A DNA stretch of 16,616 nucleotides from Candidatus Bathyarchaeia archaeon (GTDB taxonomy: Archaea > Thermoproteota > Bathyarchaeia > Bathyarchaeales > Bathycorpusculaceae). The translations under genes were made by a program, and so were the position numbers. Positions 305-16,616 of the stretch are shown here, piece after piece. Position 1 is the first letter of the stretch, and each line of letters begins with the position of its first letter. Where the stretch lies: assembly GCA_038883795.1 (NCBI GenBank), contig JAVZLK010000035.1, forward strand, positions 1-16,616, in the 5' to 3' direction. The notes beneath the pieces were generated by a model that ran no database searches, had not been told where the DNA came from, and saw nothing but the letters and a program-made list of their open reading frames with translations.

Positions 305-331
305 TGGTGGGGTAGCTGGGATTTGAACCCA
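305..331 (-). repeat. Distal att site of element A: 27-bp duplicate of the tRNA-Pro 3' end
   Basis: TGGTGGGGTAGCTGGGATTTGAACCCA at 305..331 is identical to 10898..10924 (CCA, acceptor 3' strand, T-arm). The sequences diverge on both sides. Confidence 0.95.
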
Positions 332-343
332 AAATAGCGACGG

Positions 344-368
344 ATGGAGATATCTCCCGCAAAATCCC
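344..368 (+). repeat. Conserved element-end motif, copy 1 (candidate integrase arm or accessory site)
   Basis: ATGGAGATATCTCCCGCAAAATCCC matches the reverse complement of 16218..16241 at 22 of 25 positions. It lies 12 nt inside the att core and is followed by a T-tract. Confidence 0.8.
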
Positions 369-529
369 CTCTTTTTCTATTCACAACATTTTTGAAAGTT
401 TAATTTTTGTTTTTTATTTTATAGCACAAACAGAAACAGAGAATGGAATAACGCATCCCTTAAGATTAAGTTTAGTTTTCTCGAGTTTAGATAATGTTAG
501 TGATCTATGAGTTAGAATGTAATGACTGT

Positions 530-1074
530 TCACGTAGACATATAGATGCCTAACGTTACATTTGCATTTAACTGGACAGCGATAAAATCTGGTAATCGCA
601 CGAAGCTAAAGAATCCTATCCATAACTTTAGAGCTACAACCTGATATGTTTTTACTGTGAGTTATAAGTGTTATAAACAATGTAGCGGTCTTGCCACTAA
701 AAGCCACCATTAGGTACACTCCATCCAATACCTATTGATGCGTTGCCGCCAACATCTAGTGCAATTGTTATTCGTTCATAGCCTTCTACATTGAAGCAAC
801 GCCAAACTGAAGGTACTCCTCCGGGAAGGGCGACGTGAAATCTTTCGCCGTACATATATGTTGTGTGAATTATTTTTACGTTTTTTGTTGAGTTTCCTCT
901 TGTACCGAATGCCGAAACCGCCATAACTGTGTCTGTCATGCTTATTTCTCCATTATCGTCGTAGTCAAGCCATGGATCATTCCTGACAATTTGCTGCATA
1001 GACACCGAAGAGAAAGCCAAAGTTAACAGGATGGAGCTGATCAAAATTGTAACTGCAAGCTGTTTCCTATTCAT
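530..1074 (-). pseudogene. Secreted protein with a single dockerin/EF-hand-like loop, probably disrupted
   Basis: Signal peptide (MNRKQLAVTILISSILLTLAFSS) and loop DPWLDYDDNGEISMTD..AFGT. The ORF stops at TAG 697..699, but plausible coding continues (WQDRYIVYNTYN), then after a frameshift near 660 reads TVKTYQVV...NVTLGIYMST to TGA 530..532. Confidence 0.55.
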
Positions 1075-1152
1075 AAGGCTTTATCACTTTTTCCTTCTAA
1101 TCTATCATTTTCAATCATCTTTAAAAAAGAAAAAGGAAGTGTTGAAAAATGT

Positions 1153-3333
1153 TTAAGGTGAAGATGGAGGCGGCGGCGGTGGTGGCTGCCATGGCGGGCT
1201 TGTTTTTCCGAAGTATTTGCAGACGAAGCCTAGGTCTTTGGCGTCTACTTTGCGGTCGTTGTTGACGTCTGCTCTGAAGCACCATCTTGGGTGCATGTTT
1301 GGGCATGGAGTGGAGCCGAAGGCTTTGCCTACTACACCAATATCTTTGGCATCTACTTTGCCGTCATAGTTGGTGTCGCATGGTAAATAGTGGCATATCG
1401 GCTGTGGCGGCGTAATGTCGTATAATGCGTGGGGGACATAATACCATTTCCATAGGTTGTAGGCGTATATTCCGCGAAATACCGGATTATAATACCAATC
1501 TACTACCCAGTCTCGTTCCCAATGACGTCTCAGCGGTTGGCTTATTGGCACGCTTGGACAATCCTCGACAGCAAGCAACTGAATATTAAGGTATATTAGG
1601 GCCCTCTCCAATCCATCTTTTACTTTAACACCTTTCTCTATAAGTTCATCCATTGTTGGGTTACAATATCCCTGATAAGCAGCCATCCCCATTTTACTAT
1701 GATAGAAATTGCTAGCAAAGTCGTGTGGATCTGCATAGCAAAATGTATATCCGAAAATAAAGAGCGGAGCCCATTTATTTTTTATCGCCCTGAAATATTC
1801 TGGAATAGGTAAGGCTACAATATTAACATGGAACTTTGGATTAAGCGCTTCAATGTTTTCTTTAATGATCTCTGCAGCTATTCTTCTCGGCTCATTTCCC
1901 GTATTATACAGTATTGTTATTGTGAAGCCTGTCCGCCACACGCTTGCCGCTTGAAATTCCTCTATAGCCTTTGTTAGGTTGTAGGTGTAGCCTTGCACTG
2001 GAGCGTAGTAAGGCAAGCATGGGACGATAGCTGTTGGAGGTGCTATAGCCTCACCTGCATAGGCTTGCTGTAGAAATCTTTGATAGTCGAATGCGTAGGC
2101 AAAGCCTTTCCTAATATGCGAGTAGTTAAAGAAGTCTCTTGGAATACCATCCTCGCTCCACCATCCTGGAGGATATATTATACCATAAGGGGTTTCTGGA
2201 TTAACATCAAAAACATAAAATATGGCTTCCACGGCAAGTTCAGGCAGTGGATACATAAATCTCACTCCTGGTTTCTGATAAAATTCAGTTGCGCTAATAC
2301 CTGGTATATCGATTGATCCGTTAAGGAACCCTTGAATAATTTCTTCCTTTGTCAAGCCCCATTTTACAGTGAAGGATGTAACCCAACCAGCCGGTTTGGT
2401 GCCAAAACATGCAGGGAAGTCCGCTGGCCATCCTCTCCAGTAATCATAGTTTATAACAACCCTCCAGTATCTCTCCGGTTCGGATATCGTATCTAACATG
2501 AATGGCCCTGTCCCACACATAACTGGGTATGGTTCGTCTAGAGGAGATGTTGGCAAGTGATGGTAATTTATCCAATCAGTATAGTCGCCCCATTCGCCAC
2601 CCCATTCCTTCCGGTTAAGCCATCCGATCACGTATTCGTTTATCCAAGCTTTGCTCAATATGCTTGAGTATGGCTGGCATAAAATCTGTAGGAATGGCGG
2701 ATATATTGCTGGGAAAACAAAGTTGAACCAGACATGAGTAGCATTTGACTCAACAGCGTGATCTATGGCCTTTCCAACGTTAATAATGCCCTCAGGTGTG
2801 CTGAGGTTAAATTGTGGACCATATTTTATGAGGTCTTCAGCTCCGGAAGCGTTTAGGAGAGGGGTGTAAATAGTCCACGCTAGCCCTTCATCGTAAACCA
2901 TGACACGCTCAAAAGTGTACTCAACATCCTCAGGTTTAAGCGGATAGTAATGCAATTCAATGTCACGGAAGTACACTCCAGTCCTTATTTCAAAGATGTA
3001 CCTATAGAACCACGGCAACCCTTCAGGACTAACGCTTCCTGTAATGTTCTCAACAACCCATTTTGTCGCAAGCTGAGGCATAATATGATCGGATGTAACC
3101 CTTTCGCCGTCATAGAACAACAAAGTCTCATAGATATTAAAAATTAGCTCAGCACTTGCATCATCAAAACACCGCGCTGGATCAACCGTTTCAGGCCCAT
3201 CAATGGTTCCCTTAATGAGATGGTAGACCTCATTAATTGGAGGAAATGCATACGCCGGAATAATGCTAAAAACGTTTAGGCTTACTGTTATGACAGTTAT
3301 CCAAAAAATACCCACCAACAATTTTCTCCTCAT
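1153..3333 (-). CDS. ABC transporter substrate-binding protein (family 5, DppA/OppA-like) with C-terminal dockerin-like domain and poly-Pro tail, 726 aa
   Basis: Motifs GPETVDPA, NIYETLL, PQLATKW, PEDVEYTFER, GTGPF, IRKGFAYAFD and YADPHDF. Duplicated D-x-N-x-D-x-KVDAKD loops at the C-terminus. The ATG at 3333 follows GGGAGGAG and starts a signal peptide, so it is preferred over 3546. Confidence 0.92.
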   Translation of the reverse strand: MRRKLLVGIFWITVITVSLNVFSIIPAYAFPPINEVYHLIKGTIDGPETVDPARCFDDASAELIFNIYETLLFYDGERVTSDHIMPQLATKWVVENITGSVSPEGLPWFYRYIFEIRTGVYFRDIELHYYPLKPEDVEYTFERVMVYDEGLAWTIYTPLLNASGAEDLIKYGPQFNLSTPEGIINVGKAIDHAVESNATHVWFNFVFPAIYPPFLQILCQPYSSILSKAWINEYVIGWLNRKEWGGEWGDYTDWINYHHLPTSPLDEPYPVMCGTGPFMLDTISEPERYWRVVINYDYWRGWPADFPACFGTKPAGWVTSFTVKWGLTKEEIIQGFLNGSIDIPGISATEFYQKPGVRFMYPLPELAVEAIFYVFDVNPETPYGIIYPPGWWSEDGIPRDFFNYSHIRKGFAYAFDYQRFLQQAYAGEAIAPPTAIVPCLPYYAPVQGYTYNLTKAIEEFQAASVWRTGFTITILYNTGNEPRRIAAEIIKENIEALNPKFHVNIVALPIPEYFRAIKNKWAPLFIFGYTFCYADPHDFASNFYHSKMGMAAYQGYCNPTMDELIEKGVKVKDGLERALIYLNIQLLAVEDCPSVPISQPLRRHWERDWVVDWYYNPVFRGIYAYNLWKWYYVPHALYDITPPQPICHYLPCDTNYDGKVDAKDIGVVGKAFGSTPCPNMHPRWCFRADVNNDRKVDAKDLGFVCKYFGKTSPPWQPPPPPPPSSP

Positions 3334-3778
3334 TTCTCCTCCCAATAATAATGAGAACTTAAAAGAGAATATAAATTTTTCATGAAAATTTTCGTGTAAA
3401 AGGAAGGCGAGAATAGTTACCTTTAAGTTGCCAACTAGAAGAGGGGAGGGCTGAAGTTTAAGCCTTATCTTAAGGGTTTTCATGATCTTCAGTACGGAAA
3501 ATTTAGCAACAATTGAAAGTGGTGTTTGACTGCCCCCAGTTATCATCGTGGAAATGAAAATAGCTGAATCAAAAATATTAAAGAATGGCTTAAAAACGGC
3601 AAATATAAGCGAAAGACCACCACTTCAATTTTCATGAAGCTTTAGCACTCGAGCCGATTATTTCAAACATAATTTGCATGTGGTTTATAGTGAAATATCT
3701 TGGCGATTATCGTGGAAAAACCCTCATCCACGTTTTGGCTCAATTATAGTAAAACAGGTAAGTTGAAGTTATATGTAG

Positions 3779-4006
3779 TTATATTGAGTAAAATGATAAA
3801 ATTCTGCGCCTTATTCTTCTACGATTAAGCCTGTAACTCGCAAATATTTTGGAAGGCTGACTATCTGGGATTCTTAAATGTCCTGAAGGCAGCTTTATAC
3901 ACGCTATTAAGCCCTTCTTAATCCACCTGTATATGGTTTGGTCTGTCACGCCCAGCATATGCGCAACTTGCCTAACCTTATAGTAGGAAGGGTAACGTCT
4001 ATCCAT
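3779..4006 (-). CDS. Excisionase-like (MerR/HTH_17-type) helix-turn-helix protein
   Basis: YKVRQVAHMLGVTDQTIYRWIKKGLIACIKLPSGHLRIP is the typical Xis-like HTH-plus-wing pattern. Confidence 0.85.
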   Translation of the reverse strand: MDRRYPSYYKVRQVAHMLGVTDQTIYRWIKKGLIACIKLPSGHLRIPDSQPSKIFASYRLNRRRIRRRILSFYSI

Positions 4007-4142
4007 TCGATCTTCTAGGTAATATGGGTTTAACCTTCATTTAAGCTTTAAACGCATCTAAAACGCCTTTAAGCTTCAAATTTAAGCCTTTTCCGCGCGA
4101 AGCTTATATTTTCATGCTTCTTTAACGTTAAATTGGATAAAT

Positions 4143-4415
4143 ATGCCCTCTAGGAGGATACATGAGCATTTGGATATGCTGCTTTTCGGCAAACGTTACA
4201 GTTGGCTCCATAGGTGGATGGATGAGCCATGGAGAAGCCGAGGCAAAAAACATAGGCAATTGCGCCATGATCCGCAAAAAACACCAATGCAAGCCTTTGT
4301 CCTCTCTAGTGGAGACTGGAAAGCCTACATATCAGCATTATGCCACATCATGTTAGATAAACTTTCAATAAATCCTGCTGCTGTCGAATTGTTGTACTTC
4401 ATAATAAAGCATTAA
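4143..4415 (+). CDS. Small His/Asp-rich hypothetical protein, probably metal-binding
   Basis: 90 aa with HEH, HRWMD, HRQLRHD and HIMLD motifs. Divergent from the HTH gene, with an AT-rich promoter-like region upstream. Confidence 0.7.
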   Translation: MPSRRIHEHLDMLLFGKRYSWLHRWMDEPWRSRGKKHRQLRHDPQKTPMQAFVLSSGDWKAYISALCHIMLDKLSINPAAVELLYFIIKH

Positions 4416-4535
4416 AAACCTTGATCCCTTATGCCATTAGAATAATTAGAATACATTCACGAAGCTCTTCAAAAGCGGAGGTAGGATATAAGGCTGAGGT
4501 TCCTGAAGCGTTACATTTTACCATAAAATTTTTAA

Positions 4536-4610
4536 CCCCAAACCCAAACCCAACCCCGCTCGTTCTCTTTTTCTTTCTCCCCGCTCGCACGCTCGCTCGC
4601 AAGCTCGCCA
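4536..4610 (-). repeat. G-quadruplex-forming tract plus clustered GCTCG repeats
   Basis: The minus strand of 4536..4557 reads GGGGTTGGGTTTGGGTTTGGGG. On the plus strand GCTCG occurs at 4558, 4583, 4591, 4595 and 4603, and CCCCGCTCG occurs at 4554 and 4579. Confidence 0.8.
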
Positions 4611-4613
4611 CAG

Positions 4614-4745
4614 TCACAAGCAAACAAACCTAAGCTTCCATTCAGGCTTTTCGTTTCTCAGGTATTTGGCTAAAAGATAGGCTTCCTCGTTAATGAGGGT
4701 TTCAACTGTTTGGCTTTTCCCATGCTTAATTCTTGGAATATTAAT
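4614..4745 (-). pseudogene. cas1: Probable C-terminal remnant of a solo Cas1/casposase-like endonuclease
   Basis: INIPRIKHGKSQTVETLINEEAYLLAKYLRNEKPEWKLR resembles, from memory, the C-terminal helix of solo Cas1 proteins in Bathyarchaeia/Nitrososphaeria. The upstream part of the ORF overlaps the next gene and looks non-coding. Not verified by search. Confidence 0.6.
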
Positions 4746-4849
4746 GCATATCCACATACCATAACGTTTAATTTTTTGCTGCAACTTATAAAGAATTTTC
4801 GTAAAAAATAAATCTGGAAACCATGGATTAAATCGTGAGGAGAAGGGAA

Positions 4850-6484
4850 ATGAAAGAAATGGCTTATGGAATAATGCTAACAGTATTGTTGCTCGTTGCT
4901 TTCGTATTTCCGATGAATCCAGCATATGCGTCTACTCAAGTAACTTCCTTTAACCCAGCTCTATACAATATTCAGAATATCTCGAGAACTTGGATTGTTA
5001 ACACACCGAATTATAAAGAGGCTATTATAAATATTATTACAACTGAACAGACTTTTGAATTTCATTTTAACATAACTATCATTGAAGATGACTTTGAAAC
5101 AATTTTTAACGTGTCAACGTCATTACCGGATATTGGTCCTGTCTACTTTATTTCAAGATTTCCAGATACTTTGGGAGGTGCACCTTACACTGGTAGGTGT
5201 ACGACTGTTGAAGCGTTTCGGTTGGACATCCCCTCATGGCTTGTCCCAATACTCGAAAGCATTTTAGCAGCTTTAACTTGTGCGTTATTAGTTGCAATAA
5301 TAATTGTAATTGTGGACATGATTCTAGAAATTTTATGTAGTGAAGGTTTAGTTTCAGGTCCACTATGGGACTTTATTGGAAGATTTGGCACAGTTTTACT
5401 TTCTATTCCATGGATTTTCTTGACAGTTTTTCAAGAAAAAAATCCAGATGGTTCGGTGACGTTGTACTTTCCTTACATGTATACGGAAGGAAGCAATTTT
5501 GATTATGCTATTGATTTACTATTTAATTATAACGAATATGCTATTGCAAGCAACATGAGTTGGTGGAGAATTGTGAAACATGTATATCGAGTATTTTGGC
5601 TTGAGTTCATTTGGTTTTCAGCTGAATGGTATGGATTTGTTTACCCTCCTGAAGAGTGGTGTAAACCAACTCCGCCAATTATAATACTTCCACAACCATG
5701 GATTTATAAACCAATGCCATTATTTGTTTATGGTCCGCAACCGCCATTTGTGGGAGACGCTGTAACATTCATTTCAGCGAGCTATTCACCAAATGGAACT
5801 ATAACATACGTGCATTGGTCTTTTGGAGATGGTTATGACGCTGAGGGATTCAATGTTACTCATGTATATGGAAAACCTGGAAAATATGTTGTTACAATGG
5901 ACGTAATTGATAATTGGAATTCAATAGCCACAATTTCATATGTTATAGATGTTCTGTTACCAGCAACAGTTGACATAGAACCTGCATGCCTTATTTTAAA
6001 AACTGGAGGTAACTGGACCGCTGCCTATATCGAGCTTCCAGAAGGCTATAATGTAAGTGATATTAACGTAAACTCGATAATGCTGAACGGCACAGAACCG
6101 GTGGTCCCTACAGCTCCCACCTTATTGGGAGACCATGACCGCGACGGCTTTCCAGACTTGATGGTTTTATTTAATAGAACAGCCGCTGTACAGCTCATAA
6201 TTTCACAGGGCATTATGGTTGGAAATGTGGCAATAACTATAACAGGTCAGCTTGCTGATGGTGCGGGGTTTATGGGAAGCGGCGTTATAAGTGTTAGGAT
6301 GCCAGGAGACCTAAACATGGACGGCATGGTAGACATGAAAGACATTTCCTTAGCAGCCAGAGCTTTCGGTTCATACCCCGGCCATCCAAGATGGAACTAT
6401 GTGGCTGACGAAAACGAAGACGGCATAATAGATATGCGAGATATAGCCTTAACATGCAGAAACTTCGGAAAAACCTACACATGA
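4850..6484 (+). CDS. Secreted or membrane protein with PKD domain and C-terminal dockerin-like domain
   Basis: Signal peptide ending AYA; internal hydrophobic helices; PKD motif VGDAVTF...WSFGDG...VTHVYGKPGKYVVT; dockerin-like GDLNMDGMVDMKDI...ADENEDGIIDMRDI. The ATG at 4850 follows GAGGAGAAGGG; GTG 4835 is an alternative start. Confidence 0.9.
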   Translation: MKEMAYGIMLTVLLLVAFVFPMNPAYASTQVTSFNPALYNIQNISRTWIVNTPNYKEAIINIITTEQTFEFHFNITIIEDDFETIFNVSTSLPDIGPVYFISRFPDTLGGAPYTGRCTTVEAFRLDIPSWLVPILESILAALTCALLVAIIIVIVDMILEILCSEGLVSGPLWDFIGRFGTVLLSIPWIFLTVFQEKNPDGSVTLYFPYMYTEGSNFDYAIDLLFNYNEYAIASNMSWWRIVKHVYRVFWLEFIWFSAEWYGFVYPPEEWCKPTPPIIILPQPWIYKPMPLFVYGPQPPFVGDAVTFISASYSPNGTITYVHWSFGDGYDAEGFNVTHVYGKPGKYVVTMDVIDNWNSIATISYVIDVLLPATVDIEPACLILKTGGNWTAAYIELPEGYNVSDINVNSIMLNGTEPVVPTAPTLLGDHDRDGFPDLMVLFNRTAAVQLIISQGIMVGNVAITITGQLADGAGFMGSGVISVRMPGDLNMDGMVDMKDISLAARAFGSYPGHPRWNYVADENEDGIIDMRDIALTCRNFGKTYT

Positions 6485-6798
6485 AATACTTTTCCAACAC
6501 CCATCTTTTTCTAAAAGCCAGAACGTCAAGAAATGGGCCTTAAACTTAGACCCCTTTTTTATTGTGTATGGTGCAAAATACTTTACCTCTTCTTCTTTAA
6601 TTCTGACAATAATAATTTACTTTATTGCTTCAGGATTTTCGCTTGAAAAAAGGTAAAACTAAATGGTTATCGAAGGAAGAGGCTGATGAATTCAGGAACT
6701 GCGCCAAGAGCAAGCAATTGAGGTAGGCTTAGTATATAACACCTCGCCCGAAAAATTTAAGGTTCATTAAATATATTATCTTTGGTTTGGTTTATGGG

Positions 6799-7677
6799 CT
6801 AATTGTCCGGAACCGGACAGCCAAACACCTTAATAATTAGAGGTCGAATTTCACTTTCTGTTAAGGAATCAACATGTTGTGCTAAAAGTTCAGGTTTAAA
6901 GCCTTTAAAGTTGCTCCATAGGTCATCGACATCTGGTAGGTCTGGAATTTTTAGACCGTTTCTTTCAATTATTTTCATTGAACGTTTGATTATCTCGCAA
7001 ATTTCTTCGAGAAACTTTGGCTTTTCTTTTAACATTAAAATACTAGAAAACAGAATGCTCGATCTTTTCAAGTATGCCTTCATAATGTCAATTGAAGGTG
7101 TACTTAAAAGGTAGTCGATAAGTCTTTGCTTCTCATTCTCATTTAAAATGTTATATAATTCAGCGGGGGAATTTTTAGGCAGCACCACAACACATTTACT
7201 TGGTCTACCACCCCTATCAAGAATTAATCCCGTGAATTTTTTTGGTCTGCCTATCTTTTTTGGTATAAAAACTGGTTTGCCAGAAACATATCCGCGCTTC
7301 AAGCCAAATTCCTTATCATCAAAAAGTTGGATATTAACATTTTCGTAGAAAGATTTCAGAGAAGAATACTCATGTTTAAAAATTCTTATAACTTTATGGA
7401 GTTTAACGCCTGAGGCTTCCGCTATCTCGCTATATGCCCCTCCCCTGCCCAAAAATGCTTCTAAAATCTCGCTAGCAATTAAAACCTTTACTTCATCAGG
7501 CAATTCAAACCGAGCAAACCCTTCTAAATTCTTATTTTCAATTTTTCGATTCAATTCATCGGTTAAAAGCAAAATACAGTTTAAGAATCCAGCAAATATC
7601 CTGGAAGGTAGGTTTTCCACGTTTTTTAAAGATTCGCTGCCTCTAAAGTTCAAAGTTTTACCCTCTCTAACCATCAT
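6799..7677 (-). CDS. Hypothetical protein, possible HTH regulator; true start probably downstream (e.g. TTG 7503)
   Basis: Long open frame with HTH-like YSEIAEASGVKLHKVIRIF. The maximal start leaves no room for divergent promoters. Confidence 0.6.
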   Translation of the reverse strand: MMVREGKTLNFRGSESLKNVENLPSRIFAGFLNCILLLTDELNRKIENKNLEGFARFELPDEVKVLIASEILEAFLGRGGAYSEIAEASGVKLHKVIRIFKHEYSSLKSFYENVNIQLFDDKEFGLKRGYVSGKPVFIPKKIGRPKKFTGLILDRGGRPSKCVVVLPKNSPAELYNILNENEKQRLIDYLLSTPSIDIMKAYLKRSSILFSSILMLKEKPKFLEEICEIIKRSMKIIERNGLKIPDLPDVDDLWSNFKGFKPELLAQHVDSLTESEIRPLIIKVFGCPVPDN

Positions 7678-7689
7678 TAGGTGGCACCT

Positions 7690-7872
7690 ATGGAGGTTAA
7701 AAATTTGACGCCTGTAAAAGTGACTAGGGTCACATCAAATGATCGTTGGCCTTTGATATACATTCCAAAAGAGGCTGTTCAGGAGCTGGGGCTTAAAAAG
7801 GGTCAGCGTGTTCTAATGCTTGTTGACCATTCAATCGGAGCTCTAATCATAAAACCTGTTTTCAAGGAGTGA
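7690..7872 (+). CDS. AbrB/MazE/SpoVT-family DNA-binding protein
   Basis: PLIYIPKEAVQELGLKKGQRV swapped-hairpin signature. AGGTG precedes the ATG at 7690. Confidence 0.85.
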   Translation: MEVKNLTPVKVTRVTSNDRWPLIYIPKEAVQELGLKKGQRVLMLVDHSIGALIIKPVFKE

Positions 7873-7879
7873 ACATTAC

Positions 7880-8560
7880 ATGAATTGTCCATCTGAATCC
7901 AGGATAACCGTAATAAAAAATTGCGACATTGAGCTGCGTTTCCAGATGAGAACTGATGTTTCAGAGGCCCTTTCTAGAAGCATAGGTGAACACGGCGTTT
8001 TGGTTCCTCCCGTAATATTGCAGCTTACAGATGACTTAAAAAGAAAATTTCATACCTCAAAATCGTATGTTTGCATTGACGGACATTCAAGACTCAGCCA
8101 GCTGCCTGAAGATTATGAGGTCGAGTGCCAGATCTTAACGTGGGAACAGCTATTCTGCGATTTTGAGAAATTCTGCCGTAGGGCGGGTGTTGACCCGTTA
8201 AAACTTAAAGAAGACGAGATTATAAAAACCTATATTCTTCGACTTCATGCATGCCGGGAGCCCTTGCCCAAAGATGTGTATGTGAAACAAGCGGAAAAAC
8301 TGAAGGAACTAGGCTTTAGTCTGAGGCAGATTGCTGCTTTCCTCGGCATAGCTAAATCCACATTGCATGACTGGATGCAAAAGAAGCCCCTTGGCAATGA
8401 AGACTTAGAGGGCGAAAGTCGCTTGATAAGGAGGCAGTGCGGTTTTTGTGGCAAGTGGATTCGTCAGGGGGCTAAGCCCATATGGTTTCATCCTGAATGT
8501 CACGATAAGGTCACAATTTTAATTGAAAAGGCTAAAGGAGGTGAAAACAGGAATGGGTGA
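7880..8560 (+). CDS. ParB/Srx-domain protein with HTH and C-terminal Zn finger
   Basis: LSRSIGEHGVLVPPVI...CIDGHSRL (ParB N-terminal motif), GFSLRQIAAFLGIAKSTLHDW (HTH) and CGFC...HPEC. RBS GGAGTGA. Confidence 0.82.
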   Translation: MNCPSESRITVIKNCDIELRFQMRTDVSEALSRSIGEHGVLVPPVILQLTDDLKRKFHTSKSYVCIDGHSRLSQLPEDYEVECQILTWEQLFCDFEKFCRRAGVDPLKLKEDEIIKTYILRLHACREPLPKDVYVKQAEKLKELGFSLRQIAAFLGIAKSTLHDWMQKKPLGNEDLEGESRLIRRQCGFCGKWIRQGAKPIWFHPECHDKVTILIEKAKGGENRNG

Positions 8561-8831
8561 AGAGAAATTACCATTAACTGATGAAGACTTCTTCGGGCTG
8601 GTTGATGTTTTGCTTAAGCGTCCGCCAATACAAAGCCAAAGCATGCCAAACATCAAAATCCTCATCGTGGACCACAATGGACAAGAGTATAGAATAGGCG
8701 TGATAGGCAAAGAAGCCTTTGAATCAGTTAAAAAGCATGGCTACAAGGACAGCGACGGCAAAATACACCTTCAAATTCCCAAGACATGCCTGAGGGAGCA
8801 AGGATGCGGATGGATAAACACTCCGTATTAG
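8553..8831 (+). CDS. Hypothetical protein (element A backbone)
   Basis: GGAGGTGA at 8537..8544 precedes the ATG at 8553, which overlaps the previous stop codon region. Confidence 0.75.
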   Translation: MGEEKLPLTDEDFFGLVDVLLKRPPIQSQSMPNIKILIVDHNGQEYRIGVIGKEAFESVKKHGYKDSDGKIHLQIPKTCLREQGCGWINTPY

Positions 8832-8843
8832 AGGTGCGGTTGA

Positions 8844-9182
8844 GTGGCAGGCAAAGCCCCAGTCTACCTACAACTTGCAAATCTTGAATCATTCATTGAG
8901 GAGCTTAAGCACAGAAGCCTGTCTGAAGCTAGGCTATCGGAATGGATCCAGCGCCGTGACATGTTTGAACGGCGAAAGTTTAGAGTTACAGCCTTAGACC
9001 CATATTATGGTCTAATACTACGCTACGAAAGCGTATATTATCAGGGCTTAGCTGTTGACGGCGAAACTGCAGAGCTTAAAAAATCTAGGGAAGAAGCCAA
9101 AAAGCGCATTACTGAAAGGCTTGAGGCTGAGGGAATACGCCTATTTGAAGGCGAATACCACGCTGGAAAGGCTGAATGGTAA
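8844..9182 (+). CDS. Hypothetical protein (element A backbone)
   Basis: GAGGTG RBS before a GTG start; operon spacing; 112 aa, charged and soluble. Confidence 0.75.
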   Translation: MAGKAPVYLQLANLESFIEELKHRSLSEARLSEWIQRRDMFERRKFRVTALDPYYGLILRYESVYYQGLAVDGETAELKKSREEAKKRITERLEAEGIRLFEGEYHAGKAEW

Positions 9183-9304
9183 AACAAGCAGCCTAGACCC
9201 GTCAATGCTGAAATTTTCATTGTCTACGGGTTGCATTTGGCATCTTTGGGTTGCCATTACAATGGGACTGTCGCTCAATCCTCGCTGATTCGGGGCTGCC
9301 ATGA

Positions 9305-9703
9305 GTGAGAAGCTTTAAAGCCTTAAAAGAGCCTAATTTCTCAAACTGCGACGTTTTCAGGCTTCTCTTTAGAAACCATAAGACCATTCACGCTTCAAGG
9401 CTCCTTTTCGGTTGGATGCTGAATAATGGCGGTTACGCAACACCATCCCAGCTAAGCCAATTCGCATGGAAACTACAAAAAGGTAAGGTTGAGGAAGGCT
9501 ACAATTATCGGCGTTCAAGCCTTTACAGAACAGTTTTGAGGCGCCTCTTGGATTTCGGCTTCATAAACCAACAGCAGATCTACGACAAGGAAACTGGCAA
9601 AATTGTCCAAGCCTACGTTCTAATAAAGCAGTCCATACCAAAACGCGCTCCCCTTGGCGGAGCCAGCTTCTGGAAGCTGGCATGGCACATATGCAAAGCG
9701 TAG
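9305..9703 (+). CDS. Putative winged-helix DNA-binding protein, possibly shortened by a premature TAG
   Basis: TPSQLSQFA...RSSLYRTVLRRLLDFGFI followed by a beta-wing. The frame continues NEQLEKAKG to TAA 9731..9733, just before the integrase ATG. Confidence 0.65.
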   Translation: MRSFKALKEPNFSNCDVFRLLFRNHKTIHASRLLFGWMLNNGGYATPSQLSQFAWKLQKGKVEEGYNYRRSSLYRTVLRRLLDFGFINQQQIYDKETGKIVQAYVLIKQSIPKRAPLGGASFWKLAWHICKA

Positions 9704-9740
9704 AATGAACAACTCGAAAAGGCGAAAGGCTAAGGCGAAC

Positions 9741-10867
9741 ATGACAACGCCAATCCATTGTCCACAGTGCGGTTCAACGCTTTTTTGGAAGGATGGAATG
9801 CGTTATCTATTCGATGGCTCAGCTGTTCAGCGTTATGTTTGCAGAAATTGTGGACACCGCTTCTCTGAGCCGAGCAATAAAATTGAAAAGCAAAACCGCA
9901 AGCCCATACTTTTGGAGAGGGCTCCCTTGACCCTTAAAGCCCAAACAGAAAAGCGGGCTGCGGGAGCCACAGAAAAGCCAAGCATTGCGGAGCTTCAGGG
10001 AAAAATCGTTGAGTTTCTATGGTGGATGAAGAAGCAAGGATATAAAGAGACAACGATAGCTGGTAAGGAAAAAGGCTTCAGAGGCTTGTTAGGCTTGGAG
10101 CCAACCTTTTAGATCCTGAAAGCGTAAAAGAAACAATAGCGAGGCAAAACTGGTGCGATTCAGGAAAGGAAACAACGGCATACGCTTATGACCTCTTTGC
10201 AAAATACGCTGGGATTAAATGGGAGAGACCAACCTACAAGCCTCCGAGAAAGCTTCCATTCATACCACATGAAAGGGAGATTGACGACCTAATAGCTGGC
10301 TGTAATAATAAACATGTGGCAGCGTTCCTTCAAATTGCAAAGGAAACTGGAGCAAGGGCTGGAGAAATCTTCGATCTAAAATGGACGGACATAGACTTTG
10401 AAAGGAAAACGTTGTCGATAACCCCTGAGAAGGGAAGCGATCCTAGAATCTTGAGGATTTCAGACAAGCTAATAGCCATGCTTCAAAACATGCCAAAAAA
10501 GAGTGAAAGGGTATTCAGCAATTACAAAAGCTTAAAAACCTTAAGCTTAGCCTTCCAGCGCTATCGCAAAAGAATAGCCTTCAGGCTTGGAAATCCGAGA
10601 CTTCTAAGGATAAGCTTCCACACGCTTCGCCATTGGAAAGCCACAATGGAGTATCATAGAACAAAAGACATACTTCACGTAATGCAGATGCTCGGACAAG
10701 AAACATCAAAAACACGCTGATATATACCCAGCTTGTCAAATTTGAAGGTGAAGACGAGTACATTTGCAGGGCGGCTAAAACAGTTGAACAAGCTTAGCCC
10801 TAATCGAGGCTGGATTTGAATACGTCTGCGACATTGACGGAATCAAGCTGTTTAGAAAACGAAGTAG
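9741..10867 (+). pseudogene. int: Tyrosine integrase with N-terminal Zn ribbon (IntA), four apparent 1-nt deletions
   Basis: CPQCGS...CRNCG, then KLPFIP, ETGAR, PEKGS, FHTLRHWKAT, IYTQL and GFEYV...KLFRKR, collinear with IntB. Frame breaks near 10068, 10698, 10794 and 10862. Confidence 0.9.
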
Positions 10868-10897
10868 CTTACACCTGCTGGGGTTTTATCCAAAGGA

Positions 10898-10976
10898 TGG
10901 TGGGGTAGCTGGGATTTGAACCCAGGATCGCCAGCGCCCCAGGCTGGTATCCTAGACCAAGCTAGACGACTACCCC
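10898..10976 (-). tRNA. tRNA-Pro, anticodon GGG, intron-less, CCA encoded
   Basis: GGGGTAG-TC-GTC TAGCTTGGTCTAG GAT-A-CCAGC CTGGGGC GCTGG-CGATC-CTGGG TTCAAAT CCCAG-CTACCCC-A-CCA folds as a full cloverleaf. Confidence 0.97.
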
Positions 10977-10998
10977 ATTTTCGTGGACGGGTACCCTG

Positions 10999-12228
10999 CT
11001 ATTTTCGTTTTCTAAAAAGTTTGATGTTGTTTATTTCTGTTACGTACTCAAAGCCTGCCTCTATAAGTTGGGTTGCTTCTTCTATGGTTTTTGCTGCTTT
11101 GCAGATGTATTCGTCTGTTTTGAAATTGACTAGTTGGGTGTATTTTAGGGTGTTTTCGATTCTTTTGTGGCCTAGGCATTGCATTACGTGTAGGATGTCT
11201 TTTGTTTTGGCGTATTCCATGGTGGCTTTCCAATGTCTTAAAGTGTGGAAATGTATTTGCAGTAGTCTCGGGTTTCCTAGTTTGTAGGCTATTCTTTTGC
11301 GTTGGGTTGTGAATGTTTTTCTTAGATAGAAGGTGTTTTTGTATGTGAAAACTTTGAGGTCTTTCTTTGGTAGGTTGTTAAGCATGCTTGCAAGTTTTCC
11401 CGATATTTTGAATATTCTTGGGTTGCTTCCTTTTTCTGGCGTTATTCTAATAGTGTTTGTTGCAAAGTCTATGTCTGTCCATTTTAGGTTAAAGGCTTCT
11501 CCGCATCTGGCGCCTGTTTCTTTCAGGAGTTGTAGGAATGTTGCTATTTGGTGGCTGCAGCCTGCTATTAGCTGGTCTATTTCTTCCTCTGTTGGTATGA
11601 AGGGCAGTTTTTGGGGAACTTTGTATTTTGGCATTGTTAGGTTTATTCCATATGTTAGCTTTAGGAAGAGTTTGTAGGCTTTGAAGGCTTGATTTTTTCT
11701 GGCTGGGCTCCATTTTTCTTGTTTGGCTATTATTTCTTTGACATTTTCGGGGTCGGATAGGTTGGCGCCACGTTTATGCAAAGTTTCTAGAATGTAGGTG
11801 TAGCCGGCTACTGTTGCTTCTGAATAGGCTTCTTTTTTGAGTTTCCACATGAATTCTATGACTTTTCCTTTAACGTCGGCGGCTGTATGCTCTGTGGCCC
11901 CCGCAGCCCATTTTTCGCTTTCTTTTGTGGCTGCGGCCAAATTTTTCGCCCCCAAAGGCTGGGAGGCGCATATTTGGCGGTGATAGGCTATGGCTTCCAT
12001 GCTTTTTAAAATCTGCGTATGAATTTTCTGAACTTGTTTAGAGCCCTTTGAGGTGTTGAGGCTGGCTGGCTTTTGTCTGTTGGGTTCTGAAAAGCGGTAG
12101 CCACAGTTCCTACAAATATAACGTTGTACTTGGCCTGTCGCAGTGTAGCGGATTCCATCCTTCCAAAGTTTTTGGGAGCCGCATTCTGGACAGGCCAGTG
12201 GCTTGTTTTTGGCTTGCCGTGAAGCCAA
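10999..12228 (-). CDS. int: Tyrosine recombinase/integrase with N-terminal Zn ribbon (IntB), 409 aa
   Basis: Complete catalytic set: R (TGAR), K (PEKG), HxxR (HTLR), H (LGH), Y (KYTQ). N-terminal CPEC...CRNC. TTG start with upstream GAGGGT. Confidence 0.95.
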   Translation of the reverse strand: MASRQAKNKPLACPECGSQKLWKDGIRYTATGQVQRYICRNCGYRFSEPNRQKPASLNTSKGSKQVQKIHTQILKSMEAIAYHRQICASQPLGAKNLAAATKESEKWAAGATEHTAADVKGKVIEFMWKLKKEAYSEATVAGYTYILETLHKRGANLSDPENVKEIIAKQEKWSPARKNQAFKAYKLFLKLTYGINLTMPKYKVPQKLPFIPTEEEIDQLIAGCSHQIATFLQLLKETGARCGEAFNLKWTDIDFATNTIRITPEKGSNPRIFKISGKLASMLNNLPKKDLKVFTYKNTFYLRKTFTTQRKRIAYKLGNPRLLQIHFHTLRHWKATMEYAKTKDILHVMQCLGHKRIENTLKYTQLVNFKTDEYICKAAKTIEEATQLIEAGFEYVTEINNIKLFRKRK

Positions 12229-12236
12229 TAGCGGGC

Positions 12237-12473
12237 CTACCCTCTAGGTTTTTGGTGCTGTTGCCAGTCGCCTAGCACGCCTTTTTGCACTGCGGCCATA
12301 AGTTGGTCTGCTTTTACGTAGATGGCTTTCCAGTGGTAGGCGTCGCAGTCCATCATGAAGGCTATTAGCACATAGCCTATGACTTCGTATTGTCTGTTTG
12401 CCCATTCAAAGTCGTCTATGTGCAATCCGCCTACAATGAGAATGTCAATTTTAGGCTTGTCATCAACTGTCAA
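12237..12473 (-). CDS. Hypothetical protein upstream of IntB
   Basis: 78 aa; GAGGGGG before a TTG start; the stop lies 8 nt before the IntB start. Confidence 0.6.
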   Translation of the reverse strand: MTVDDKPKIDILIVGGLHIDDFEWANRQYEVIGYVLIAFMMDCDAYHWKAIYVKADQLMAAVQKGVLGDWQQHQKPRG

Positions 12474-12756
12474 AATTGATAGCCCCCTCTAGATTTTTCG
12501 CCTGGAAAATAGACACTGCCAGAAAACCATTTTCGCCTCCCCCTCTAGTCTTTCGGGGCGATGTCATGGTTGTGGCTGTTTCGGCTTAACAAATACACTA
12601 CCCCTTCTCTAGTTTTGGCTGAAAGCGGAAAGGCTGTGCATTCTGGTTTTTCGGGTCTGTTACTTCCATTTTTGAAAAGGAGAGTGAAAGAGAGAAAGAG
12701 AAGAAGAGAAAATGCATAGGCATAAGCACACACGCACACATACACACGTTAGAAAG

Positions 12757-13158
12757 CTATTGCTGGTTATCCTCGGAGCTCGGCAGCGTCTCAAGGAGTT
12801 CCTGGTAAAGTTTTAGGGCTTTCTCTCTAACAGCCGGGTCTTTAATGTTATCTATGCGCTTGAGCAACGGTATAACAGACCTTTCTTTTTCCTCTTGGGC
12901 TATTATATGTTTCATGGCTGACCGCTGCTTTTCTGTGAGGTGATAACGCGCATAGGCATCAGCCTTAATAATACCTGCGAGTGTTAACTCCTTTACCATT
13001 TCGCTGGTGGTTTTGAACTTTAACCCAAACACTGTCAGCATATACGCTTGAATCTGTGTTATTGAAACGCCATGCGGCTCATTCAAATTAATGAAGGTTA
13101 AAAGCTCCATCATACGACTATGCCGCTGAGTGGCACCGTCAGGAACGTCTGCACTCAA
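12757..13158 (-). CDS. Winged-helix DNA-binding protein
   Basis: ELLTFI...GVSITQIQ...TTSEMVKELTLAGIIK...RYHLT wHTH pattern; GGAGGT RBS. Confidence 0.78.
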   Translation of the reverse strand: MSADVPDGATQRHSRMMELLTFINLNEPHGVSITQIQAYMLTVFGLKFKTTSEMVKELTLAGIIKADAYARYHLTEKQRSAMKHIIAQEEKERSVIPLLKRIDNIKDPAVREKALKLYQELLETLPSSEDNQQ

Positions 13159-13187
13159 CGCGCTTACCTCCTATAAATGCTTCAGTT

Positions 13188-13388
13188 TCAACCTTGACCT
13201 TGACTATCAATACCCAGAGAAGGCTTAAACCCTAAACGTTCAAGCTCTCGGCGGACAGCTTCCCGGATAAACTCTGTTTTGGTTCTATGCCAAACCCGAC
13301 CAACAGCCGCCTCCAAAGCGTCGTCCAAACTCTTTGGAACAGCAACATTCCAAAACCGCACACCCCGACCGCTTTGTTCCTCACCCAA
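13188..13388 (-). CDS. Ribbon-helix-helix (CopG/Arc-like) regulator
   Basis: WNVAVPKSLDDALEAAV...TKTEFIREAVRRELERL. GGAGGTG lies 6 nt before TTG 13388; the longer N-terminus in the ORF track is just translated repeat DNA. Confidence 0.85.
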   Translation of the reverse strand: MGEEQSGRGVRFWNVAVPKSLDDALEAAVGRVWHRTKTEFIREAVRRELERLGFKPSLGIDSQGQG

Positions 13389-13448
13389 CACCAACACCTC
13401 CACGCCAGCGCTTAAACAAACAACAGAAAACACAAAACAAAAACCAAA

Positions 13449-13508
13449 TTGGACCATACATTGGCCTACACAAGGCACAACAAAATGGCCAAAACAGTGG
13501 CCCACAAC
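13449..13508. promoter_or_regulatory. Five degenerate 12-bp tandem repeats (operator or iteron array)
   Basis: TTGGACCATACA / TTGGCCTACACA / AGGCACAACAAA / ATGGCCAAAACA / GTGGCCCACAAC, located between the divergent RHH and methyltransferase genes. Confidence 0.6.
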
Positions 13509-13582
13509 ACAAAAAATGAGCATATAACATGCAAAAGCAACACTTAATTAGCAATTCTTATAATAGGACACTGGAGAAAGTG

Positions 13583-14467
13583 ATGGAAGCAGTCCAGAAC
13601 AAGAGAAAAATTATTAACAAACTTAACGAGTTAAGCGGCAGAGAATGGATTAAATTCACCAAAACATGGTTTATCCATCGCCCAGCCCCTAGAGAAAACG
13701 CCAAACTTTTACACCCAGCAGCTTTCCCTGAATCACTTGCAAAGGAGTTTATCGAATTTTTCACAAAAAGAGGACAGCTAGTTCTAGACCCCTTCCTGGG
13801 TACAGGTAGCACACTAATTGCTTGCATTGAAAGCGAAAGATCCGGTATAGGTGTGGAAGTTGTAAAAAAATGGGCTGATATTGCTGAAATGAGAGTAAAA
13901 AATCTATTAAGCCAAAGAAAAGGCTCAGAATATTTGCTAAATTCAATGGGATTAACCCCCGAAAAACTGCTAATAAAGGTTATCCACGGAGACTCTAGAA
14001 GATTATGTGAGATATGGAAAGAAAACAATTTTCCACCAGTAGACTACTGCATTACAAGTCCGCCCTACTGGAATCAGCTCAAAAGAGATTATCTCAGGCA
14101 AAAGGAGAGAAAGGAAAAAGGTTTCGAAACAAAATACAGCGAAGACCCCAACGACATAGGCAACATCGATGATTATAATGAATTCCTGAAGGCGCTGAAG
14201 CAAATATTTAATGAAGTTTATAAGATAACCAAAAACGGCGGCTATTTAACAGTCATAACAAATAACGTATTCTACAATGAAAGATTATACCCCTTAGCCT
14301 TTGATACTCTAAAAATTTTAAGCGAAGAACCCTATGCATGGGTTCCAAAAGACGAGAAAATTTGGCTGCAAGACGACAAACCTCTACTTCCCTTAGGTAT
14401 ATACAACGTATGGATAGGAAATAGAGCACATCAATATTGTCTAATTTTCAGAAAAGAAAAGGGATGA
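13583..14467 (+). CDS. Amino-DNA methyltransferase, probably N4-cytosine
   Basis: HPAAFP, then SAM-binding VLDPFLGTGST, then catalytic ITSPPYW. The ATG at 13583 follows GGAG; 13529 is an alternative start. Confidence 0.92.
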   Translation: MEAVQNKRKIINKLNELSGREWIKFTKTWFIHRPAPRENAKLLHPAAFPESLAKEFIEFFTKRGQLVLDPFLGTGSTLIACIESERSGIGVEVVKKWADIAEMRVKNLLSQRKGSEYLLNSMGLTPEKLLIKVIHGDSRRLCEIWKENNFPPVDYCITSPPYWNQLKRDYLRQKERKEKGFETKYSEDPNDIGNIDDYNEFLKALKQIFNEVYKITKNGGYLTVITNNVFYNERLYPLAFDTLKILSEEPYAWVPKDEKIWLQDDKPLLPLGIYNVWIGNRAHQYCLIFRKEKG

Positions 14468-14470
14468 AAC

Positions 14471-15619
14471 TTGGGGGTCCAATACACTCTAACTGGTGAA
14501 GAGCTGGTAAGTGCTCTTTCGCATGATGAAATGGCATTTGAAGTTGCTCGCACAATCAGAGATTTGGTTTTAAAAGGTATAGACCCTTGGAAAACATTAT
14601 ATAAACCAACAATAGTCATTACATCATCCTCAGAATGGCCAGAGCCAGATTTTGTATTTGATGACAGAAAAGGAATAACTTACAGCTTTGAATTTAAGCC
14701 TCCTGAACAAGTCAGGCGAGAATACCTACTAGGAATAGGACAAGCCGTAGCTTATCTGACACATTTCTCTCATTCAACCATAATTCTTCCCAAAACGGCT
14801 GAAAATTTCAACATAGCTGATTATATCAGTAGCATTGTACGTAGCCTACCGCTAAAAATAGGCGTAATAGCCTATGAACCTACCGACATCAAACAATTAG
14901 AAGTTCTCGTTCCATATCCCCCTCAACCCGTAGGCCCCCTAGAAAGAAAGGCGGCCATAGGAAAAGTTTTCTGGGCATTCTGGATGGATGAATCAATACA
15001 CGAATTTTACCTCATGCTAAAACGCTCATATGAGCTAAGAAACGAGCCAGGAGATATAAAAGAAAAAGTGTTCAAAGATATCTTTGCTTTAATGCAGCAA
15101 GGACAGACATATGCGAATGATGGTACTCCTAGAAGGTTGGGAGGCCGCTTAAAGTTTTCCTCATGGTTTCTAAATTACCGCTTACCCTTCCTTCACTGCG
15201 GATTATGGAGCCTAGACGGAAAACCAACCTTAACCGGAACAAGAATCCTCTCCATCGGAGACACATACGGATGGGACTCAGAAGAATTCAGAAACGCCCT
15301 AGCAAAAGCATACCTAACCAACGGAAAACACTTACTCCTACTAAAATACATATGGGACATCCAAATAAGCATGATAAACAACAACATCAAACACCAAACC
15401 CAAAACGAATACCTAAACAAAATGGCAGACGAACTCATGAAAAGAGGATTCGGAAGAGCCCACAGAGGCGTAAGAAGAAACCTCCAAGCCATGATATCAC
15501 TATGGGGAGGCGGATTCAAAATCCTAAAAACCAGAAAAAACAGTTACTACTTCAGAGGCTTTGGCCTAGTCCCAGACTGGGGCAAAATAACCACAATCCT
15601 CCAAACACAATACTGGTAA
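14471..15619 (+). CDS. Putative restriction endonuclease, PD-(D/E)xK fold
   Basis: PEPD-x13-EFK followed by GIGQAVAY (QxxxY helix). Starts 3 nt after the methyltransferase stop. Confidence 0.75.
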   Translation: MGVQYTLTGEELVSALSHDEMAFEVARTIRDLVLKGIDPWKTLYKPTIVITSSSEWPEPDFVFDDRKGITYSFEFKPPEQVRREYLLGIGQAVAYLTHFSHSTIILPKTAENFNIADYISSIVRSLPLKIGVIAYEPTDIKQLEVLVPYPPQPVGPLERKAAIGKVFWAFWMDESIHEFYLMLKRSYELRNEPGDIKEKVFKDIFALMQQGQTYANDGTPRRLGGRLKFSSWFLNYRLPFLHCGLWSLDGKPTLTGTRILSIGDTYGWDSEEFRNALAKAYLTNGKHLLLLKYIWDIQISMINNNIKHQTQNEYLNKMADELMKRGFGRAHRGVRRNLQAMISLWGGGFKILKTRKNSYYFRGFGLVPDWGKITTILQTQYW

Positions 15620-15678
15620 AAAGAAAAGGGGAATAATCGCACTTTCAAATCTTTATTAGGCTTTAAGAATACATCTTG

Positions 15679-15867
15679 TCATTCTTTATAGATGTAAACT
15701 AACAACCATCCGAACTGCAAAAGAACACCTATTGCAACAAGACCCCACCCTGCGTTTACCATACCGTTGTTGCCTAGTAAACTGCCAAAGAAAAGCAAAA
15801 CGAATCCAAGCGCTAAACAGATCGCTGGCGGGCTTCTAGCAATAACGTCCACCAACACGTCGAGCAT
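15679..15867 (-). CDS. Small two-helix membrane protein
   Basis: 62 aa with two hydrophobic segments; GGAGGG RBS before the ATG. Confidence 0.7.
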   Translation of the reverse strand: MLDVLVDVIARSPPAICLALGFVLLFFGSLLGNNGMVNAGWGLVAIGVLLQFGWLLVYIYKE

Positions 15868-16217
15868 TACACTACCCTCCTAGGGTAACGAGTACCCGCA
15901 TTGATTGGGACGGAAAAAGCTTAAATTTAAATGCCTCTTTATCTAACAAGCGCTGACTCGCAGATGACGATGAGATTGGTTGGCCCAACCAATCGAGTAT
16001 TCTCATTTTACCCCGAGTTTTCCGAGACGATAATACACAAACTTATTAGATTTTTCAACAAGAATTATTAAAAAAGAAGATAAATCAGAGCATACGTATG
16101 TTGTTTCTCATAACTGAACATTATAGAAGAAGGCTAAATTGCGCTTTTTATGCACAAAAGGCTCTTAAAAGGCCGATTTTATAAAAAATCAAATAAAAAA
16201 GATAGAATAAAAAAAAT

Positions 16218-16241
16218 GGGATTTGCGGGGGATTTCTCCAT
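16218..16241 (-). repeat. Conserved element-end motif, copy 2
   Basis: The minus strand reads ATGGAGAAATCCCCCGCAAATCCC followed by a T-tract, 8 nt inside the att core. Inverted relative to 344..368. Confidence 0.8.
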
Positions 16242-16249
16242 TTCAGTTT

Positions 16250-16274
16250 TAGACCAAGCTAGACGACTACCCCA
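16250..16274 (-). repeat. Distal att site of element B: 25-bp duplicate of the tRNA-Pro 5' end
   Basis: TAGACCAAGCTAGACGACTACCCCA is identical to 10953..10977 (position -1 through the D-loop). Confidence 0.95.
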
Positions 16275-16616
16275 ATATTACAGACCAGCGCCCTCATACT
16301 TATTTTCTTTTTCTAAGCCAAGATTTTGGGGTTATGGTTGTGCTGTTATGCTTTTACAAAACACTAGCCATCTTAGTTTTTCGGAGCGACTTGAAGCATC
16401 TTCGTGTTGCGGGTTTTAACGTTGACATTCGTCCTGCCAGCACATAGTCAAATTTAGGCCGCTGTGGCATTTAAATTGAGTACCCTCTCTAGGTTTGTCT
16501 CATTATGTGGCCAGAAAATATGCTTTTGGCTTCTGTGGAAAATGGGCTTTCAAGGGCTTTATTTTCCCTACCCCCTCCTCTCTATGTTTAGTTGAAAAAG
16601 CAACAACTTCAAAACC

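Follow-up and report, generated by a model that had tools for sequence, protein, structure and literature searches.

Can a single tRNA gene serve as attB for two integrative elements, one at each of its ends, and did one integrase reach its end by leaving the other? The question is raised by the window, as we call the whole stretch of 16,616 nucleotides analyzed here, which is a complete 16.6-kb contig of a 2.18-Mb Bathyarchaeia MAG. The runs containing its sequence are hot-spring metagenomes. ARAGORN and Rfam agree on a sole tRNA gene in the window, tRNA-Pro(GGG). Two exact direct repeats, each with one copy in this gene, delimit element A (305-10924), on the 3' side of the tRNA, and element B (10953-16274), on its 5' side. 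In both elements, the 3' end of the integrase gene is directed at tRNA-Pro.

10898-10976, minus strand: tRNA-Pro(GGG) with encoded CCA, attB of both elements (ARAGORN; Rfam RF00005, 58.2 bits)
10898-10924: core A, proximal copy, 27 nt (CCA, discriminator, acceptor 3' strand, T stem, T loop, and 4 nt of T stem)
305-331: core A, distal copy, a 100% direct repeat of 10898-10924 (the tRNA's final 27 nt with CCA, which the plus strand carries in antisense)
332-10897: body of element A, about 10.6 kb, between the copies of the 27-nt repeat
9750-10867, plus strand: IntA, a broken integrase gene (tblastn with IntB, four pieces in frames +1, +3, +2, and +1, 41-71% identity)
10953-10977: core B, proximal copy, 25 nt, tRNA positions -1 to +24 (5' strands of the acceptor and D stems plus almost all of the D loop)
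16250-16274: core B, distal copy, a 100% direct repeat of 10953-10977
10978-16249: body of element B, about 5.3 kb, between the copies of the 25-nt repeat
10999-12228, minus strand: IntB, a 409-aa tyrosine integrase that is intact and has a four-cysteine zinc ribbon at its N terminus (PF00589, 74.3 bits; cut-off, 27.1)

IntA is a pseudogene. Breaks near 10065-10076, 10700, and 10791 spread its pieces over three frames, its ancestral TAG (10865-10867) is out of frame, and internal stops were also reported by the genome search. Element A carries an SBP_bac_5 and dockerin protein (1153-3546, minus strand) and a PKD and dockerin protein (4835-6484, plus strand), both recognized by Pfam; large secreted dockerin-domain proteins are an unusual cargo for an archaeal integrative element. 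Element B encodes three other proteins, of which the second and third (13529-15619, plus strand) may form a restriction-modification pair.

13188-13523, minus strand: RHH protein (Pfam)
13529-14467, plus strand: N6/N4 DNA methylase (Pfam)
14471-15619, plus strand: 382-aa protein with no family match

IntB is a tyrosine recombinase (Phage_integrase, PF00589) in which R241, R331, H332, H354, and Y363 are invariant in five paralogs. Its nearest relative by sequence is the archaeal chromosome-dimer resolvase XerA, which also provides the closest solved structure (5hxy, E = 1.3e-17; also 4a8e, E = 3.7e-15). Unlike XerA, IntB has an extra zinc ribbon and linker of about 100 residues and resides on mobile elements by tRNA genes, and its score of 103.7 bits against the XerA equivalog NF040815, below the cut-off of 220, places it outside that group. 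In its mode of working, element B resembles the pTN3-like/TKV4 integrases of Thermococcales, which are SSV-type and suicidal and which, in the parts of PMC8371274 and PMC5495485 consulted, recombine the 5' half of a tRNA gene, so that the restored tRNA is cut off from its own promoter and expressed from the element, namely from the integrase promoter (PMC8371274). The attB of element B is likewise the 5' half of a tRNA gene, as delimited by core B (-1 to +24) and its distal direct repeat. In the pTN3 type, however, attP lies inside the integrase gene, 41 bp are common with the tRNA, and the gene splits on integration (sections of PMC5495485), whereas the IntB ORF remains whole after integration, core B, which starts 22 nt downstream of the stop codon, lies outside the ORF, and the tract shared with the tRNA is 20 to 25 nt long (14 to 16 nt in a His/Ser clade of the family). 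The use of the tRNA 5' half by core B is a likeness to pTN3-like integrases in mode of working, not membership among them.

The initial annotation had linked the two cores through an 8-mer, TGGGGTAG, derived from the self-complementary acceptor stem. Both cores do contain it: four copies occur in the window, at 308 and 10901 on the plus strand and at 10977 and 16274 on the minus strand, compared with 0.36 expected and with four reached in 0 of 200 shuffles, and all four are the two copies of each core. The acceptor stem, a perfect helix, accounts for seven of the bases, but the eighth is a chance base. Perfect Watson-Crick acceptor helices are found in 29 of the 46 tRNAs of this genome, and the complementarity of base -1 to the discriminator that the eighth base needs is found in 3 of the 46. 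In three related 5'-type elements, the -1 base is A, T, and A, so the eighth base is not conserved. The inverted identity of TGGGGTAG is an automatic property of the acceptor helix and carries little information. Similarly, the suggestion that one tRNA gene offers two equivalent targets holds over the 7-bp acceptor helix but not beyond it; past the acceptor stem, cores A and B have 2 of 16 positions in common (ungapped, counted by eye).

Other motifs had been read as crossover signals. The dyad proposed for core A, CTGGG-ATTTGAA-CCCAG, is present at 10909-10925, but a T-arm dyad occurs in every tRNA. The one proposed for core B, CTAG-N6-CTAG, is present at 10952-10965 (one match in the window; at least one in 26 of 200 shuffles) but is not supported as a pair of half-sites, since it is absent from the tRNA-Pro of three relatives, the loci C63, L011, and L013. 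There, the position of the second CTAG reads CAAG (C63 and L011) or TTAG (L013) in the tRNA and ACCA or ACTA in attP, and identity stops at +20, inside the proposed spacer (16-21). The CTAG-6-CTAG dyad is therefore a peculiarity of the tRNA copy in the window. In both dyads, the final G falls outside the identity block. Both distal copies do enter the AAAA run with which the cores were said to end (CCCA/AAAT at 328-335; minus strand TCTA/AAAC at 16253-16246), but the run belongs to the conserved attP arm of Pro elements only (4 of 12 arms), as part of the linker ahead of the P' module described below, and does not mark the core end.

One genome per species was scanned for family members; 521 relatives were confirmed, of which the best 80 loci, nearly all from Bathyarchaeia, were kept. 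In 50 of these 80, the integrase stop lies 150 nt or less from a tRNA found by ARAGORN: six integrases are co-directional with the tRNA and upstream of its 5' end, and 44 are convergent on its 3' end. BLAST of the other 30 loci against a tRNA library added three 5' and 13 3' cases, with 13 loci lacking a match and one ambiguous. ARAGORN without its intron option missed several intron-bearing tRNAs; in some genomes, the tRNA-Pro(GGG) targeted at its 5' end has an intron (L011:11258-11358 and L082). The genome of the window has at least 10 IntB paralogs, five copies of each type, nearly all adjoining tRNA genes. That the 5' arrangement represents 5' integration follows from distal direct repeats of the first bases of the tRNA, found for element B and for C63, L011, L013, L089, and C19. 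The 5' identity blocks extend as follows.

Element B of the window, tRNA-Pro: -1 to +24
C63a, tRNA-Pro: -2 to +20
L011, tRNA-Pro: 0 to +20
L013, tRNA-Pro: +1 to +20
L089, tRNA-His: -2 to +14
C19, tRNA-Ser: -8 to +14
C4/C12, tRNA-Ser: -10 to +16

For the 3' type, distal repeats outside the own genome gave two clear cases within 10-kb flanks (L042 and L086), so that the 3' boundaries come mainly from the own genome. At least four lineages have targeted the tRNA-Pro gene, which makes it a hot spot. Overlap between the targets of the two types was considered as evidence and set aside as uninformative: two of the five tRNA species used at the 5' end (Pro-GGG and Gly-GCC) are also 3' targets, compared with about 1.4 expected by a rough estimate.

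Stand-alone 50-aa zinc-ribbon ORFs, about 59% identical to the IntB N terminus, occur at C19:29592-29744 and C4:25140-25292. The former lies just inside the distal att copy of a tRNA-Ser element whose integrase is without a zinc ribbon; no att copy was found adjoining the latter. Such an ORF could be part of a split integrase or a separate arm-binding factor. At L090:11190-11399, a 14-nt tRNA-like core comes after the end of an integrase gene, with the P' module immediately next to it; this arrangement resembles an attP that has not integrated, as in a free or tandem element. Of 72 matches in viral contigs, one truly belongs to the family (L091, of the 5' type at tRNA-Ser, 49% identity), and none of the 72 provided a free attP.

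The phylogeny of the integrases bears directly on whether IntA and IntB represent one enzyme before and after a change of end. We used a careful maximum-likelihood tree of 87 rows (78 loci and nine own-genome rows), which covers the best 80 of the 521 relatives less L049 and L058, dropped because of internal stops; IntA was read through, with X at its breaks, and deep branches are weak (39/66). IntB falls in a six-row clade that uses the Pro-GGG 5' end only (100/90), its five nearest relatives all being of this kind. This clade lies within one of 12 rows, all 10 typed rows of which are 5' (Pro, Gly, and Arg), beside a second 5' subclade made up of Gly-GCC, two Arg-GCG, another Pro, and two contig-edge rows. 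The 12-row clade joins L019, a 3' Asn integrase and the nearest 3' row, in a 13-row clade (96/96). The sister of IntA is L023, at the 3' end of tRNA-Gly(GCC) (100/96, 70% identity), and the two lie within a 3' clade with Phe, Ala, and Asn targets. Elsewhere in the tree are the main 3' Pro-GGG clade, 10 rows including C63b, and a separate second 5' group with His, Ser, and the attP-like L090. At least three changes of end are needed among the 74 typed rows. IntA and IntB are members of one large Bathyarchaeia integrase family but are not sisters, and from their placement we conclude that ends were switched repeatedly in the family but not between IntA and IntB.

This result contradicts the switch proposed in the initial annotation, in which an IntA-like ancestor of IntB would have left the 3' end of this tRNA for its 5' end by way of TGGGGTAG, with exchange across the T-loop dyad in A and across CTAG-6-CTAG in B. 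Every motif named in that proposal is present, both integrases fall in one 23-row clade (support of 96 in a quick tree and 80/83 in the careful tree), and both subclades have Pro-GGG and Gly-GCC targets, tRNAs that are about 83% identical. GGAT also follows both cores in the tRNA, although we give no weight to this post hoc coincidence of 4 to 5 nt, which is not seen for tRNA-Gly. The nearest known relationships point elsewhere: the sister of IntA uses the 3' end of tRNA-Gly, the five nearest relatives of IntB all use the 5' end of Pro in a clade that also includes Gly and Arg 5' users, and the nearest 3' row is the Asn integrase L019. With the second CTAG and the eighth base not conserved and identity in relatives ending at +20, we judge descent of IntB from an IntA-like enzyme on this tRNA to be very improbable. 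The tree does not place any end switch on one and the same tRNA.

A better-grounded form of the symmetry idea emerged from the attP sites, whose organization is common to both types. In each, the integrase stop is followed by a P arm with an imperfect copy of the acceptor stem, the core, and a P' palindrome module, and the core always begins at the acceptor stem and runs inward. In the window, the components, together with a scar discussed below, are as follows.

10880-10888, plus strand: P-arm repeat of the start of the acceptor stem for A, GGGGTTTTA, lying 22 nt ahead of the acceptor start (five contiguous matches out of 9)
344-378, plus strand: P' module of element A, ATGGAGATATCTCCCGCAAAATCCCC and then a T run, including the 12-bp palindrome GGAGATATCTCC; aligns with the arm past the distal core in 11 of 12 family att sites, of both types
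10989-10997, minus strand: P-arm repeat of the start of the acceptor stem for B, AGGGTACCC, lying 21 nt ahead of tRNA +1 (6 of 9 matches at offset 21)
16209-16241, minus strand: P' module of element B, ATGGAGAAATCCCCCGCAAATCCC and then a T run
16275-16317, minus strand: scar of an older 5'-type element (last five codons, LRKRK, stop, and P-arm-like sequence), matching the gene end and P arm of IntB and C63a

The P-arm copy was scored as matches of core positions 1 to 9 to the spacer, registered at the first acceptor base. Scores peaked at offsets 20 and 21, with means of 4.56 and 4.25 of 9, compared with 1.7 to 3.1 at 22 other offsets and with means of 2.9 and 2.7 for non-cognate cores at the same two offsets. 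Copies with at least 7 of 9 matches were present in 27 of 55 loci but in 0.05% of non-cognate pairs; as the loci are related, these locus counts are not independent events. The mean match was 6.1 for the eight 5'-type loci and 5.6 for the 47 3'-type loci. With the offset left free, cognate matches exceeded non-cognate ones in 12 of 15 target groups (Wilcoxon P = 0.002), and there was no excess in the other three (5' GlyGCC, 3' GlyGCC, and 3' LeuTAG). C63a, L011, and L013 have copies with 6 to 8 of 9 matches at offsets 20 to 21; the IntA copy, with 5 of 9 at offset 22, is weaker than that of IntB and off the family-wide peak. The P' module, GTGGAGAnnTCTCCCGCAAAnnCCC and then a T run, is found in the distal arms of both types, 11 of 12 in all, some 28 to 36 nt from the start of the acceptor.

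This common layout suggests recognition of the acceptor-stem sequence by the protein, and anchoring of the integrase on the acceptor stem is plausible on this comparative evidence. It also grounds the symmetry idea better than the 8-mer alone did, because an integrase that changed ends on one tRNA would exchange only the inner core and retain both the P-arm copy and the outer core. Heterobivalent integrases of the lambda type have a separate N-terminal domain for attP arm sites that are distinct from the core sites; IntB has an N-terminal zinc ribbon and a phased P-arm repeat, and this repeat is similar to the core.

An alternative explanation for the P-arm copy could be that it binds no protein and is instead a fossil that repeated integration and inexact excision left of former cores or, in 5' types, belongs to the promoter with which the element supplies the tRNA. 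Scars of older elements do adjoin cores, at 16275-16317 and at C12:564-607 in the same MAG (G000), and 5' types need the gene end and P arm to drive the tRNA, which is exactly the piece that the scar at 16275-16317 retains. Fossils would lose phase, however, whereas the copy keeps a constant distance of 20 to 21 bp (roughly two turns of the helix) whether the type is 5' or 3' and across 12 of 15 target groups, and it is also found in 3' types, which have no need of a promoter. We therefore consider a fossil or promoter origin unlikely and retain protein anchoring as the working explanation. The scar at 16275-16317 now forms the outer flank of the distal copy of core B, with no more integrase sequence beyond it, and may have been kept as the former promoter of the tRNA. 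Its resemblance to a gene end and P arm explains why repeat D2 reaches 52 nt at 75% identity. The sequence at C12:564-607 is an orphan copy of core A with adjoining P arm, 36 nt of it identical to the window, and no integrase gene lies alongside.

Where would the strands cross? Identity blocks set limits on the crossover, not its exact place. In the 3' type, the inner block ends lie 21 to 23 nt from the acceptor start in five pairs, that is, 2 to 4 nt past the T loop in 5 of 5 3'-type att pairs (4 nt for core A and 2 to 3 nt for the four other own-genome pairs), in keeping with the crossover at or beside the T loop that had been proposed for element A. The tRNA segment borne by element A runs from the T loop to the 3' end, which assigns it to the T-loop sublocation. 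Element A and the other 3'-type members thus resemble the T-loop class of the Williams sublocations, as cited in the part of PMC8371274 consulted, in carrying the T loop to the 3' end; mycobacteriophage Ms6 in tRNA-Ala is an example of that class. In the 3'-type members, the T stem would be the dyad and the 7-nt loop the likely overlap. The present family differs from that class in also having 5'-end clades and the P-arm copy of the acceptor stem.

For element B, the initial annotation placed the crossover in the D loop. Recombination with the 5' part of the tRNA and an inner boundary in the D loop are borne out, but not the CTAG dyad. The inner block ends of the four 5' Pro pairs, at 20, 20, 20, and 24, would put the crossover within +1 to +20. 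If the geometry were as in the 3' relatives (overlap at 13 to 19), it would fall at about +13 to +20, at the start of the D loop. In the second 5' clade (His and Ser), blocks end at +14 to +16, so that there the geometry differs and crossing would precede +14 to +16.

A further concern is that the mirror arrangement of elements A and B could be an assembly chimera, in which an A strain and a B strain were joined through their common 79-nt tRNA. The MAG has several versions of the same tRNA loci (four of tRNA-Ser GCT and two of tRNA-Pro GGG), suggesting a strain mix. In a comparison of the whole window with Logan contigs of four hot-spring runs, none of the listed pieces bridges the tRNA (10909-10991), and none of the listed joints leaves out precisely 332-10897 or 10978-16249. 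Beside the C63 locus there is no counterpart of the window's outer flanks, so that this comparison yielded no empty site. That locus (G000 C63:357-6899) is another tRNA-Pro(GGG) site in the MAG, mirrored in the same way but with different integrases, C63a of the 5' type, 65% identical to IntB, and C63b of the 3' type, from the main Pro 3' clade. Integrases facing one another across a single tRNA recur in independent assemblies (C63, L062, L083, and L049), and both repeats of each element are on the contig of the window. A chimera therefore appears quite unlikely, and even if it were real, the conclusions about the att sites would be unchanged.

Taken together, these observations probably reflect the use of one tRNA-Pro(GGG) gene by two lineages of one classical integrase family, anchored on the acceptor stem and with a common attP layout. 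In this scenario, two different lineages of a Bathyarchaeia-specific tyrosine integrase family, with a XerA-like catalytic part, an N-terminal zinc ribbon, and a gene that stays whole on integration, would each have integrated at this gene. Element A, now decaying, would have entered at the 3' end with a crossover at or beside the T loop. Element B would have come in at the 5' end, crossing over within +1 to +20, probably early in the D loop, and would have replaced the first 24 bases of the tRNA and the region upstream. The integrase may be positioned by acceptor-stem sequence read from the outside inward, and because the acceptor helix is self-complementary, this anchor would be available at both ends of the tRNA gene, which may have eased repeated changes of end in the family. 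More tentatively, and with rather less confidence than in the scenario above, we suggest that a family anchored on the acceptor stem, repeated in attP two helical turns upstream, could have used the same anchor at both ends of every tRNA gene to alternate, at least two or three times, between integration at the T loop (3') and at the D arm (5').

Use of the tRNA 5' end is rare but known, from pTN3-like integrases. In the sections consulted, a 2021 review (PMC8371274) locates archaeal and bacterial integrases at the anticodon loop, the T loop, or the 3' end in tRNA genes and calls pTN3-like integrases "unique in archaea" in using the 5' half, and a 2019 survey describes 5'-distal tRNA recombination as "considerably less frequent," with one case in Ca. 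Caldiarchaeum. The rare other 5'-distal integrations in the parts of the literature consulted, CalSub-E1 (tRNA-Ser, Ca. Caldiarchaeum) and the element of Zhao and Williams 2002, are single cases, whereas here whole 5' clades (nine of the best 80 loci and five own-genome copies) stand beside 3'-type relatives. No description of Bathyarchaeia integrase att sites or of this family was found in the portions searched of a literature that included PMC10848311, PMC11697101, and PMC8371274, and "Bathyarchaeota" and "zinc" have 0 occurrences each in the portions of the review PMC8371274 that were searched. What is new is a whole clade of classical integrases at the tRNA 5' end, together with a shared, phased attP layout.

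How site-specific integrases gain new targets bears on the design of integrases on demand. The family provides a natural series in which close relatives act at either end of a tRNA while keeping one attP layout, and it offers matched pairs of enzyme and site with which to separate the part of a site that the protein reads from the part that needs homology alone. If the anchoring reading is true, a mirrored fourth sublocation, used by classical, unsplit integrases, would be added to the three known. Integration at the tRNA 5' end is common in Bathyarchaeia, compared with its attribution to one Thermococcales family in the part of the 2021 review consulted (PMC8371274). Such elements permanently replace tRNA promoters, and in the window the scar of an older one is now the outer flank of the distal copy of core B.
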